Shown here: positions 1 to 11,699 of the stretch, in pieces
How the letters are laid out: each line of letters opens with the position of its first letter
Numbering within the stretch: the stretch's first letter is position 1
Assembly (NCBI GenBank): GCA_036785375.1
Contig: JAWMAR010000148.1
Span: 4,960,001-5,024,000 of the forward strand
Length of the DNA stretch: 64,000 nt
Direction: 5' to 3'
Source: Leucoraja ocellata
Taxonomy: Eukaryota
The notes under the pieces: model-generated
Told to the model about the DNA's origin: nothing
The model's input: the letters and a program-made list of their open reading frames with translations, nothing else
Databases searched by the model: none
Position numbers and translations under genes: made by a program

Positions 1-185
1 CCACATCGGACTAGAGGGTTAACTGGCCACTGTAAATCACCTCCAGTTTGTGGCTGAATAGTAGAATCTGAGGAGAGTTGATGAGAATGTGGGGAGAATA
101 AACTATCGGGTTAGGGTGGCTGGACCTTTGATGTTCGGCACCGTACCATTTGACCGAAGGCTCTGTTTCTATGCTGTTTGACTCT
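1..185 (+). mobile_element. SINE 3' half
   Basis: Similar to the 3' part of the other SINE copies (GGTTAACTGGCCACTGTAAAT...GAAGGCTCTGTTTCTATGCTGT). Confidence 0.55.
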
Positions 186-6240: not shown

Positions 6241-8210
6241 TAAAGAGGCAGAATACAGATCACAAACATGGTTCAGATTTATATTGTTGACTTTTTTCAA
6301 GATATCTGGAATTGTACCCCTTAATTTTAGCTTAACTTGAAACTGGAGTTAAACCATTGATTTTTTGTGCACTCGGAGCACTATGTTCATAGCTCATAAG
6401 TTTAGGAGCAGAATTAGGCCATTCGACCCTTCAAGTCTACTCCTCCATTCAATCGTGGCTGATCTATCTTTCCCTCTCAACCACCTTCTCCTGACTTTGC
6501 GCCATAACCCCTGATACCCGTACTAATCAAGAATCAGCAATACTTTGCTGTCACAATAAAGCAAGGAAAAAGAGGATTTTCACTGAAATTAAACTGTGAC
6601 AATTGATAATTTTGAGCTGACTGCACTTGGCTAAGATTTGTTATTTTTTTTAAAGTTGCAGTTCGTTACAGGTTTAACTTTCCGTGTCTTCAGTCAATGA
6701 GTGGAGGAAATAAGCAGCCGAGGAAAAAGGGTTTCCTTACTTCCTGGACTCAAGTGTGTCTCCTGGTGGGTTGCTTAAGGAACTGTTGACATTCTTCGCA
6801 ACTTTAAACCCAGAGTGTTCAAGCCAGCCAGGTGCACAGGGCAGGCTGGCGAGACGGAAAATTACATGATAAAGGATTATGTAGCGTTGTGGACCAACAT
6901 AAGCTGTCCTTTTGTGGAGCAGAAGTGCAAGTGACGCAGATTGATAAGTTTATTTGTCACAATCCAGGTTGCAATTCCCTTTCTTATAAAAATATAAGAT
7001 TTTGTTGTTTTACATTTTGACCTAAAAATGGGGAATTTGGGCTGTCTTTACTTTATTTTTTCCTTTTTATTTTCATTTTTATTTTCATCTTTATACACCA
7101 ACTGTCAGTTTTTGGAGGCAAATGCGTTATTTTTTACCATTTAATTTGTTGCTTTACTTTAACATTTTGTATTAATGCTGTTAATATAGTATCCTCGTTG
7201 ATTAAATGTTAATGGACAAACTCTACACCATTTTTATTTAACTACATGATATTGTTCATTATTTAGTTTCTTTTAAGTAATGCCTTTGACTTGTTGCTCC
7301 ATTAAGAAACTCCATTGTGAGTTTATAAGCTATTGCATTATACTTGCAATTTCTACAGCTGTTAAAGCCATAACTGTGTTTTTGAGCAATCACACCTCCA
7401 CTTTATTGCACATTGCAATCATAATCCCTGTTTATCTTTTATGGCATTGTTTCAAAATGCTGTAAAACCATAAATAATATTCCTGAAATTGGTTCCTTAT
7501 TAAAATAATTGAGGTCATTCTAAACTTGGTTCTCTTGTTAGCTCTTCAGAAATCAAACCTTGTTAACCATCCTTAGACAGTACTAGAATAATATTCAGGT
7601 ATAAATGTGATGTTATTTCAAGCAGATCCAGACTTGAAACAACCGTCTCTGAATGTGCGTAAAATCACAGTACTTTAAAAAGGAATGTATTTGGAATAAC
7701 AAATGCATGTCGCTTTACCTATTTTTCAACCATATAGATATAATAAATTGCTGTGCAAATTGTTTTAATATCCCCACTAAAGAAATCTAGCATTATCAAC
7801 AGTACAAGCTGATGCAAAAGGCAAATTCACCAAAACCCACTTTCCCGGTAATTTACTTTTCAAATGTCTAGTCACATGAAAAGCAGATAACTCTAATGAT
7901 TTTTACTTCAGTCTAAAGTGTTATCTGATATCTCTGTTTCTTGTCAGTTTGAATAAAAGGGATAATTTCTGCAAACGTTTGCCAGCTGTCAACTAATACA
8001 TTTGCAGAACTAAAATATGATGGTTACGTATCGCTGAGAGCTACACATTTAACAAAAAACCAGCACCAGATGTTTCAAACTCGCATAAATGATTTTGGAT
8101 AGACACTCAATTTGCTTTGTAAAACCTAGTAAACTTGAAATTATGCACTCATTTGATTTGTTAAACCCCTTTAATCTGTATCTTTCCAAGCTAATTAAAG
8201 TATTACTTAC

Positions 8211-8499
8211 AGTAATTGCAGCTGGGATTAACCGTGCCTTTGATTTTGCCCTTTTTATCAATCCTCAGATAAAACTGTGTCCGACAGAAAAGTTTTCGTA
8301 TTCTTACATCTCCACCTTCCATGTAGTCGTAACTTCTGGTGTGCCGCTCAGGACTGGTGGAACAGTTCACGCTTGCAGCTAGTTGTTCTGGAGTCATGTC
8401 ATTGCAAGCGATAGACACATTCCCTGCTAGAAGGATACAATGAAAGTATAGTTTGTACAACAAAGTTGGCAGGATCCATATCTGCATCCATTTGCGCAT
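8211..8499 (-). CDS. FGF7: Fibroblast growth factor 7 (KGF), first coding exon; the remaining exons are not seen and presumably lie left of the window
   Basis: Translates [96 protein letters not shown]: a signal peptide plus the FGF7-typical CNDMTPEQ and [14 protein letters not shown] motifs. It ends at a phase-1 GTAAGT donor (8210-8205); 289 nt. Confidence 0.97.
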
Positions 8500-8817
8500 T
8501 ATAGTGCACTGCTCCGGGTTCTCTTGAGCGACATGCTGCAATTTAAATGACAAATCGGATGAATGTTGCTAGTTTGAGGTCCCAGCTTCTGCCTGGATTC
8601 CGTGACCTTGGATCTCTTTTATTTGTGGCACTAGCAGTTTAGAATGTGTTTAAGCTTTCCTGAGAAAGTTTATGATGCTGAGCCAGAGTTTCTTCAGAGA
8701 AGTGATGCACTGTCAATTTTCACTATAAACAGTTCAGTTTGTAGTACTCTGGAATGTCTTGATCCTCTTTGCCATTAGAATTTTCCTCTTGTACAGAGAG
8801 TTTTGACGATAGTAAAG
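8500..8817 (-). other. FGF7: 5'UTR portion of the FGF7 ATG-containing exon
   Basis: Candidate acceptor CTTCTGCTTGCAG with CAG at 8820-8818 on the minus strand. The boundary is inferred, not proven. Confidence 0.6.
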
Positions 8818-9421
8818 CTGCAAGCAGAAGTATCACTTAACTTTAACAAGCCATTACAGTCAGCTGTTACAAATAAATTACAACCATGGCAACATGCTTG
8901 GAGGTGTATACCAATTTTTTTTTAAGTTCTAGTTAGTTGCCAGTTTTCACTTTTAAAAATAATGTAAAACCCAAAACTAGAAAAGATAGCTTGCTTTTCC
9001 AAAAGTTGCTGTGTGCTACGATATTAGTCTTTTATCTGTAATTTAAAAAGTATGATATTTGCAGCATGGAATATGTTCTACATTACTATTCCACTGCTGT
9101 TTCAACTGCTCGGCTAAACCCTGCTGCTTAATCAATCCTCCCGGCTTCTGTACACTTGTCATCTTGCATTCATTCATTCAAAAGTAATCACAACATATTT
9201 TATGTGGTAAAAATCAAATGCTTTCCATGGAATTCTCCCATGTTTCCTAAACACAATTCACGTTTCGCTGTATCGACTGGCTGTAAGCATTCACAACTAC
9301 CTCGATGTCAATCCACATGTTTAACCTAAGTCAGTCTAATGCAAAAAAAAAAAAAAATTCCCTTGGCAAAATAGTTTTGTAGAAATAAATGCAATACTGT
9401 ACAATTACTGATAAAACTTAC

Positions 9422-9600
9422 TTTTGTTTACGTTGAAGACAGACTGTGCACAGAAACAATCCATTGTTTTCCCCTCTTCACATCAGCAGCTTGTGTGTCA
9501 TTGTGGACTATATCCCAGCTCAGGAAGATTCCAGCTGAATCATAATTGTTTCCATAAATCAAGTGTTAACACGAGAGGGATTTTCTGGGCATCATCAGCC
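9422..9600 (-). other. FGF7: FGF7 5' non-coding exon 1 (5' end approximate)
   Basis: The minus strand reads TTGATTTATGGAAACAATTATGATTCAGCTGG, which matches my recollection of the mammalian FGF7 leader. It ends AAACAAAA|GTAAGT (donor 9421-9416). Confidence 0.75.
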
Positions 9601-9620
9601 TGTTGTTGTGCAGTTCTGTT

Positions 9621-9645
9621 CAATAAATGCCTTTCCCTGACCTCA
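9621..9645 (-). promoter_or_regulatory. FGF7 core promoter: CRE/ATF-like TGAGGTCAG followed by an AT-rich TATA-like box
   Basis: Minus-strand TGAGGTCAG (9645-9637), then CATTTATTG (9629-9621), immediately upstream of the putative exon 1. Confidence 0.6.
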
Positions 9646-11699
9646 CTTGGAAGTAATTAGATCTTAGCCAGTCAGCTGTCAGTTGGCAACACGAACAAAG
9701 GAGAAGTGAGGTTTCCTTTGTCAGATGTCCACATGGTCATCCGAGGGAGCTATGAACTCAGAGAGGGCTTTCTCATTTCCACACCATGTCTCCTTTCTTT
9801 ATTCTCTGCTCTGTAATTCCATTCTGCTACAATCATGGGAGTAATAACGTGCAGTTCTCCACCACACATATTCCCAGCTAGGGAAAACAAACCATTCATT
9901 TTCTCTTCATATTCATTGTGCTTTCCGGAACTATACATTCAGCCACTGAAGGTAATTGAGTGCCTTCTGTTATGTATAAAATTTAACGTGCTAAAGCAAC
10001 TGAAAATCTTCATGTGGTCTATTATTGGTATGTTAAATTTAAAATATTTCCCTTTATCAAGTAAGATAGCAGCTGGACAGATTACACTATCTAGTTTTTT
10101 CTATTCAAAACTCTGAATGTTACATATTTCTTCTTGCGTATGGCATGCGCAGCCTAAAGTTGTAGGATAACTTGTTCTGTTTGATCTTCTGTTTGTGCAT
10201 GCCTGGTCGATTGCAATGGTCGAAACAGGGTGAATGTTGCAATCTCCCACCTCAATGTTTCATACGATGCCTACTGGCATATTGCCCTGTGGAGGTTTCT
10301 ACTTGAGGCACTGCGGGGAAAAGATTTGCTTGCTCTCGTGCTCCAAATCTTTTTGAAGCTGCGTAGTTATTATACCTTTTGGATTGATCTCGCAAATTGA
10401 GGGACACTTCAATTAGAGTGGCAATCAATAATCTCAACTCTTTGATTATCAGGAACATCTCTTATCACAGTCCATTAAGGCAATGGTTTTATGAATATGC
10501 CAACCAATAACTCATAAATGCTGTTGCCGTGAATGAGTTATGTGCTTTCATATAAAGGAAGAGTTCCTGGACATTAATTGGGCTGAAATAATATGGATAT
10601 GTGGTTCCAGGTAGGATCAGATGTATCTGAAAATTAATTGAAAGCCATGATAAGTTAGTGTTATTTTCTACACGCATATAATTAACAATCAACCTTGTAC
10701 AATAACATCTTCCTTCATCCCCTGCACATTTAATCTAATTAGTACAGTTTTTTTTAAATAGCCACCATATTTTAGATCTAGTAAAACAGGTTGGTGAGCT
10801 ATTAAAAAAAGCTGATGATAAAAGTATATCTTTTATGGAGCTGTAAAAACAAAGTTTCCATCAGAGTAGCACATGTTTTTATATTGATTATATTTCATCA
10901 CTTGACACATGCAAAACTTTCCTATTATAAATTTATTTTCATGTGCTTCCCTCTGTGAAAGAACTATGAGTTAAGAGCCTGACAAACATCCTACCAGTCC
11001 ATAAATGTTTCTAGAGCTACTGTCATGAGCTACTTGAAAGTAGCACTTGGCATGTGCTAAGTGACCCACATCCTGATGCATTTTTATTTTCGTTCCCCGA
11101 CACATTTTCTCCCCTTTTTTCTCTGGGCAACTCAACCCAGTAAATTTCCCTCTAGACACTGTGTATCTATCATACATCACTTGCCTCTCTTCTTTTCAAA
11201 TAGTTTCATAGTAGGGCAACTAAGTTGATGAACAAACATCAGTCTGCAATATTACCTATGGATTACCAAAGCCTCTCAAAATTGTAAATACATTTTAACC
11301 TACTTGCTTGCAGTCATGATACAAGTAGTTAAGTAATGGTATTTGCCTTGCATTTTGCCACTCAACCAATATTTCCAGTCATAAATCCAGATTTTCACAT
11401 TCGGCTTGTTGTCTGTGAGTACAATTTTGAACTCCCTCACTATCAACCAGGCCAAACAATGAAAAGTGCACAAGTATCTCACATTTGGTAAGAAAGATTA
11501 CGTCGAAAACAGCAACTGTTAAGATCTTGAATTTTGTTTACCTGTAAAAGAAGTTTGATTGAAGCTCATTGAAATGTCATTAGTTTTCAACGATGAGAAA
11601 TTATCTGAGAATAAGAGAAAATGATCTAAATGTCTTTTAACTAACCTAACCTTCACTAAACTAACCTTGGTTGTGGGAAATTCAATGGTCACTTACACT

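Follow-up and report, generated by a model that had tools for sequence, protein, structure and literature searches.

The FGF7 start and its spliced leader

The window (the whole stretch of 64,000 nucleotides of Leucoraja ocellata DNA that was analysed) encompasses the beginning of an FGF7 gene on its minus strand, where the main ATG, in the context ataATGc, opens an exon of 96 codons that shows 93% identity to Mustelus FGF7 and has FGF7 chains as its top matches in the PDB. Two downstream FGF7 exons are located on the same contig (G000:C148:4941542 and 4934859); DTWD1 was compared with the window and gave no match, and FGF7 synteny has no support from DTWD1. Directly ahead of the main ATG lies a short upstream open reading frame (uORF), the final A of whose TAA (8501-8499) is the A of the FGF7 start codon (8499). 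The uATG stands in the context agcATGt, with A at -3 and T at +4, and the contexts of the uATG and the main ATG are equal, as both have A at -3 and neither has G at +4. This 11-codon frame had been read in the initial annotation, the second haplotype of the assembly carries it in identical form, and a uORF ending in TAATG on the FGF7 start is confirmed as real. The features of the region, all on the minus strand, are as follows.

8211..8499, minus strand: first coding part of FGF7, from the signal peptide to the start of the FGF domain, with a GT donor at 8210
8497..8501, minus strand: TAATG stop-start overlap
8534-8499, minus strand: uORF, 11 codons and TAA, with its uATG at -35 and in the +1 frame relative to FGF7
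8536..8558, minus strand: acceptor-like tract whose final CAG stands one base ahead of the uATG
8580..8584, minus strand: TGGGA, resembling TURBS motif 1, at -85 and upstream of the uATG
8500..8817, minus strand: leader part of exon 2, 318 nt, with an extra uATG at 8775 (13 codons)
8818..9421, minus strand: intron 1, 604 nt, GT..AG
9422..9575, minus strand: exon 1, with five uATGs; its extent is the reach of the contigs, and the true start may be further upstream
9462..9464, minus strand: exon-1 uATG B, acaATGg, in strong context; present in the bird-type locus
9520..9555, minus strand: exon-1 uORF A, 11 codons, tttATGg; present in the bird-type locus

The evidence for splicing was taken from intron-skipping contigs of related shark runs, the kind of run (RNA) being guessed. 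Contigs in all four related runs (four studies) skip a GT..AG intron between 9422 and 8817; the joint 8817-9422 is exact in runs X4, X17 and X20 (three studies), and run X18 joins 8817-9425 with three other letters between. Single contigs (X4 record 22 and X18 record 9) lead from exon 1 into exon 2 and through both the uORF and the main ATG, and the uORF is part of the spliced FGF7 leader, upstream of the CDS. The ATG and TAA of the uORF are unchanged in all four runs, and one run differs inside the uORF at 8518, a change that is non-synonymous in both frames when read by hand. The spliced leader is at least 472 nt long and contains seven uATGs, the one at -35 being the last.

The peptide of exon-1 uORF A begins METI in both the L. 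ocellata and the bird-type (L009:421) loci, and at the corresponding site of the teleost-type locus no such uORF was seen. It may be a separate conserved-peptide candidate, and its position points to likely homology with the human FGF7 uORF that Ji et al. 2015 found translated (NM_002009:127-174), a different uORF of the same gene that lies about 1 kb upstream of the one studied here and likely corresponds to 9555-9520 of the window. According to the accessible part of PMC4739776, the human uORF is translated, is conserved in mouse with a Ka/Ks of 0.24, and belongs to a list of uORFs translated more than three-fold above the CDS; for FGF7 this human catalogue lists the exon-1 uORF alone and no uORF at -35. 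Few ribosomes may reach the -35 uATG, six uATGs lying further upstream. Other variants of the FGF7 leader are given in PMC8270899 and PMC13663528.

Exon-1 uATG B also opens FGF7 isoforms that are predicted to arise in other species by alternative splicing. The predicted isoforms that begin at exon-1 ATGs (P0005, P0008, P0020, P0027 and P0029) splice in frame to inner acceptors, which lie before the uORF in the carnivore isoforms (42-residue extension), inside the uORF in the marsupial isoforms (18 residues) and inside the signal peptide in the shark and bird isoforms. Splicing of this predicted kind can bypass the uATG or shorten the signal peptide. Upstream of exon 1, the non-coding stretch 9597-9757 (minus strand) aligns with the bird-type locus at about 79% identity (161 nt) and with the teleost-type locus at 78% (98 nt) and is likely the FGF7 core promoter; just upstream of it, 10127-10235 is a fragment of a high-copy transcribed repeat with a very deep pile-up of contigs.

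When the 300 nt ahead of the FGF7 start were shuffled 20,000 times with dinucleotides preserved, a stop-start uORF of any length came up in 2.6% of cases, and across five 300-nt leaders the share ranged between 1.6 and 4.0% (20,000 dinucleotide shuffles each). In a single genome the chance of such an overlap is low, not tiny, and the overlap is uncommon, not meaningful alone; the uORF is placed above chance because of its conservation across loci, not from the shuffle odds of one genome.

Conservation of the uORF in FGF7

A scan of metagenome contigs gave three FGF7 loci, of which L007 (teleost-type, up to 94.8% identical to teleost FGF7) and L009 (bird-type, 100% identical to bird FGF7 over 95 aa) were used and L008, which begins at the gene and has no leader, was excluded. 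The alignment that the initial annotation had called for, of the uATG at -35, the frame and TAATG, found all of them kept in both loci (2/2), with the same 11 codons, and with L. ocellata this makes three of three FGF7 loci; the bird-type locus has a second in-frame ATG at -26. The ungapped identities of the three FGF7 pairs at -35..0 are 28, 21 and 25 of 36, the value of 28 being that of the L. ocellata-bird pair, and they are 8-9 of 36 at -107..-72. Invariant columns among the three loci number 7 of 36 at -71..-36 and 14 of 30 inside the uORF, with no indels, and the onset of conservation is at the uATG. All five ATG and TA bases are invariant (p about 0.02 at the block's own rate), and the ATG alone is not exceptional at that rate (p about 0.10).

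For other lineages, mammals among them, the comparison was made through predicted proteins whose main frame extends back into the leader, for which 461 proteins were screened; a protein was counted if it had an M-x-[K/R/N/I/E]-W start and at least 16 residues ahead of that start. A Tyr, His, Asp or Asn followed by a codon starting with G was scored as allowing the ATG, and Ile, Leu, Val or Met at -1 as allowing the stop. Among the distinct FGF7 read-through leaders, which span carnivores, a rodent, primate-type, snakes, frog-type and teleost-type, a Met at -35 is allowed in 15 of 16 and a stop at -2 in 16 of 16, the lone exception at -35 being a splice form from a marsupial, whose splice junction falls within the uORF. 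The chance per random pair is 0.034 for the Met at -35 and 0.23 for the stop at -2, figures that apply to independent rows, the present ones being related and selected for an open main frame. Such proteins show compatibility only and cover no leader with a closed main frame; in some of them a TGA seems to have been translated as Trp. A region-limited homologue search returned two proteins. The claim that the uORF is conserved to mammals is partly supported: it holds at the DNA level in position, length, frame and TAATG for L. ocellata, the teleost-type and the bird-type loci, and for mammals these indirect protein-level data are compatible with it. The human peptide given in the initial annotation, MLFMNTRSTTL*, fits the residues allowed by the primate-type record P0123 (99.4% identical to a human KGF fusion record) at 12 of 12 positions, as compared by eye at the protein level. 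The residues TRS..L, which had been taken as shared, are not conserved, as the bird uORF reads TQN..L and the teleost uORF PHC..L.

These leaders keep the position of the ATG, the A at -3, the frame and a stop that coincides with the start or follows shortly after it, while the peptide is free to vary. Stalling of the ribosome by the nascent uORF peptide, or an action of that peptide in trans, would agree with the M-(x)-L-F-M/I/L start found in bird and teleost FGF7 and in L. ocellata FGF10 and FGF22, and with the final Leu retained in FGF7; against it, the L. ocellata peptide differs after the Met at 7 of 10 positions from bird and at 9 of 10 from teleost, and codon position 2 is the least conserved of the uORF (3/10). 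Across the three non-independent FGF7 pairs 2 synonymous and 23 non-synonymous changed codons were counted, and with these numbers a conserved-peptide uORF finds no support; we regard it as hardly credible.

The uORF might also be a by-product of a block kept as an old coding exon start (a 3' splice site with an exonic enhancer) or as an occasional in-frame N-terminal extension, which seems unlikely while deserving some weight. In its favour, a CAG acceptor-like site precedes the uATG in four of the five leaders (L. ocellata and teleost FGF7, L. ocellata FGF10 and FGF22; the bird leader has CAT), behind pyrimidine-leaning tracts with 11-14 of 20 pyrimidines that resemble the used acceptor (12/20), and the CAG may be the mark of an old exon start; predicted carnivore and marsupial isoforms (P0005, P0008) start at exon-1 ATG B and include the block, partly or entirely, in frame; and the L. 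ocellata-bird changes, six of eight of which fall at main-frame third positions, comprise 4 synonymous and 4 non-synonymous ones when read in the main frame, against 0 and 7 in the uORF frame. However, the bird-type locus with CAT instead of CAG still keeps the ATG, no splice joint was found at the acceptor-like tract in the related shark contigs, which use 8817 (rare forms are lost from contigs), neither of the teleost comparisons shows the third-position bias, and conservation sets in at the uATG. The teleost-type main frame is moreover closed by a TGA at -24, and the open stretch of the main frame contains no in-frame ATG in any of the three FGF7 loci. A conserved in-frame extension was tested and found unsupported, and the block is more conserved (28/36 between L. 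ocellata and bird) than an open frame would require.

Upstream ATGs of FGF10, FGF22 and an FGF3-like gene

In L. ocellata the FGF10 gene (L005/L006) is 94% identical to catshark fgf10a, and a further gene (L003/L004) is here termed FGF22 because it lies facing POLRMT, at a distance of about 160 kb, on the contigs of both haplotypes, FGF22 and POLRMT being syntenic in human. In genomic DNA, uATGs are present at -47 and -35 of FGF10 and at -41 of FGF22, all in the +1 frame; the first uATG of each stands behind CAGC as in L. ocellata FGF7, and an A at -3 is found in all five first uATGs (three FGF7 loci, FGF10 and FGF22). Both paralogues read CAATG, with the uORF frame entering the CDS and ending in a TGA at +18, and the five +1 frames are alignable with gaps of 6 and 12 nt and have a common C-x-N-G tail. 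The chance that both paralogues have a +1-frame uATG within 50 nt that stays open to the start is 0.025. The uORF element predates the split of FGF7, FGF10 and FGF22, because an alignable uATG in the same frame and context is found in all three; it is older than the initial annotation had proposed (the gnathostome ancestor), as FGF10 and FGF22 share the element.

The stop-start of FGF7 and the overlap of its paralogues are a one-base difference. The bird-type and teleost-type FGF7 loci retain the TGA at +18 behind the TAA, and L. ocellata FGF7 has lost it. Since two paralogues have the overlap against one with the stop-start, and since the leftover TGA remains in FGF7, parsimony suggests that the overlap form is ancestral, and a change of C to T at -2 would have created the FGF7 TAA. 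Among the distinct FGF10 read-through leaders, classed by motif, a Met at -47 is allowed in 11 of 14 and a stop at -2 in 0 of 14, with Thr at -1 in all, and judged from these predicted leaders the base at -2 looks fixed in FGF7 and in FGF10, a different one in each; the extended FGF22-like leaders are compatible in one of three, a weak result. A stop at +16..18 is compatible with 15 of 18 FGF10, 24 of 35 FGF7 distinct N-termini and 3 of 11 FGF22-like proteins, which is no more than suggestive of a stop that is needed in FGF10 and free in FGF7. It is a doubtful proposal that a pre-duplication element was re-tuned by one base, with a dead-end overlap in FGF10 and a UAAUG restart without TURBS in FGF7, the two states having persisted since and the stop of the overlapping frame having helped to freeze the signal-peptide start M-x-K-W-x-L-T that the genes share; if it holds, FGF7 and FGF10 would make a naturally matched pair in which to study coupled termination-reinitiation in cells.

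Mouse int-2 (Fgf3) is reported to have an out-of-frame AUG ahead of its start. In the FGF3-like gene found here (L012:6609-6626, G000:C24), an out-of-frame ATG in the +1 frame is located at -8, before CACAATG, and opens 5 codons; all five extended FGF3-type proteins end in G-H-A-T-M, which is compatible with this uATG. All four subfamily members may be gated; an FGF4-like gene has no such uATG within 200 nt. At L012:6617-6899 of this haplotype the signal-peptide ATG of the FGF3-like gene and the remainder of exon 1 are in different frames, representing either an assembly error or a real frameshift.

Probable leaky scanning and the alternatives to it

The FGFR2b ligands FGF7, FGF10 and FGF22 are secreted and dose-sensitive; gland and limb defects result when FGF10 is haploinsufficient. 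The reading that we favour, and consider probable, is a repressive uORF common to FGF7, FGF10 and FGF22 that acts independently of its sequence and is passed by leaky scanning. Ribosomes starting at the uATG would be lost to the growth-factor frame, there being no spacer before the main ATG, and FGF7 would be made mostly by ribosomes that scan past the uATG; the uORF would accordingly have to be translated and would lower FGF7 output, and the stringency of start-codon selection, or splice forms lacking the uATG, might tune that output. Because the contexts of the uATG and the main ATG are equal, a good share of the arriving ribosomes may be expected to start at -35. Leaky scanning is favoured because the one-base overlap probably precludes ordinary reinitiation, overlapping uORFs (oORFs) are usually bypassed and there is no DENR effect. 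In the accessible parts of the sources, reinitiation of the ordinary kind is something that an overlap of 1 nt "likely precludes" (PMC5972666), oORFs as a rule regulate negatively and are passed over through leaky scanning (PMC10275272), and Denr knockdown in NIH3T3 leaves the translation efficiency (TE) unchanged for Fgf7 (log2FC -0.05, adjusted p 0.98) and Fgf10 (log2FC -0.21, adjusted p 0.52) (PMC6547434). The log2 TE values of control NIH3T3 cells in the same part of PMC6547434, read without the genome-wide distribution, are -0.48 for Fgf7 and -0.14 for Fgf10; such near-zero values do not suggest severe repression of either gene.

The initial annotation had named two mechanisms, a leaky-scanning gate and termination-reinitiation coupling, and it is the second that loses support. 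In the coupled form the uORF would relay and delay ribosomes that restart at the overlapping or nearby main ATG, the TAA of FGF7 having tightened the coupling. This improbable mechanism draws on TAATG being the classic stop-start pentamer (PMC5972666, accessible part), on a stop at -2 being allowed in every FGF7 leader examined, on the FGF10 and FGF22 stops still lying within 18 nt of the ATG, and on the Borna disease virus uORF, which represses X, yet X comes mostly from termination-dependent reinitiation (PMC2766071, accessible part). Against coupling, the paralogues have no stop-start overlap, and TGGGA within 150 nt is present in one of the five leaders, that of L. ocellata FGF7, where it varies even among close sharks, base 8582 being altered in runs X17 and X18 (two of the four related runs). 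No conserved RNA structure was found at -61..+39 of three sequences (consensus energy -6.35 kcal/mol; 1 of 13 pairs with two-sided change; folding z -0.54 to +1.29), and there is no DENR dependence in the accessible part of PMC6547434, a point tempered by coupled restart not needing to use DENR. TURBS-type coupling found no support, as FGF7 has the overlap and neither a conserved UGGGA, nor the structure, nor a long upstream ORF, the uORF having only 11 codons.

Delayed reinitiation of the ATF4 kind, in which ribosomes translate the exon-1 uORF, rescan and bypass -35 under eIF2-alpha phosphorylation, would make FGF7 stress-inducible and is very unlikely. The leader does have the arrangement of a short exon-1 uORF (translated in human; present in L. 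ocellata and bird) followed by a uORF closing on the start. However, the bypass window is only 35-47 nt wide and the upstream uORFs end more than 220 nt earlier, so most ribosomes would be re-armed before the gate; in addition, uORF A was not seen at its site in the teleost-type locus, and Denr knockdown had no effect in the accessible part of PMC6547434.

Several known systems are comparable to the FGF7 uORF, as far as the available parts of their descriptions go. The last uORF of human SLAMF1 (UGAUG; PMC5972666) also overlaps the main start by one base in a cellular mRNA with several uORFs, but it has 29 codons and a UGGGA-like sequence, whereas the FGF7 uORF has 11 codons and no conserved UGGGA. 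The TURBS stop-restart systems of influenza B segment 7 and the caliciviruses (PMC5972666) have the UAAUG pentamer in common with FGF7, yet they require a long upstream ORF, motif 1 and a structured TURBS, of which motif and structure are not conserved in FGF7. The Borna disease virus X/P uORF (PMC2766071) ends at the next start, and removal of its uAUG raises the downstream protein; unlike the FGF7 uORF it is viral, helicase-regulated and of demonstrated reinitiation. Out-of-frame oORFs (PMC10275272, PMC11057154) are likewise short, out of frame and without a spacer before the main ATG, and in the accessible part of PMC11057154 oORFs occur in 15.0% and uORFs in 34.4% of human 5'UTRs. In contrast to typical oORFs, the FGF7-family uORF has the same position and frame in sharks, birds and teleosts and in all three paralogues, and FGF7 appears fixed for the stop-start and FGF10 for the overlap.

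In the literature searched, which left subscription papers mostly outside, no account was found of the FGF7 -35 uORF or of its sharing among FGF7, FGF10 and FGF22, nor any Ribo-seq or mutant data that show it translated or active; the supplements of PMC11057154 gave no match for this uORF. What is new is the deep and cross-paralogue conservation, the class of mechanism and the uORFs and oORFs themselves being familiar, and the human uORF may be present in Ribo-seq catalogue lists beyond those covered.

In the 1990s, the removal of ATGs just upstream reportedly raised the output of human KGF (FGF7), and we know of no cross-species or cross-paralogue analysis in the KGF and int-2 leader work of that time. 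If these reports are real, repression by the uORF is supported and the human element was already known, with the deep and cross-paralogue conservation remaining new. If the repression has been kept across jawed vertebrates, there is a single ATG whose loss should raise ligand output, and this ATG would be a site at which to look for non-coding variants and a possible target of oligonucleotides that block the uORF. The TAATG/CAATG pair offers a ready comparison of whether a one-base stop-start after a short cellular uORF permits restart, which the accessible part of PMC5972666 left open for SLAMF1. A second in-frame Met stands at codon 5 (8485-8487, minus strand) in L. ocellata and teleost FGF7, just past the uORF stop, and is a possible restart site; the position is Ile in tetrapods, and the Met there is the start of some predicted teleost proteins.
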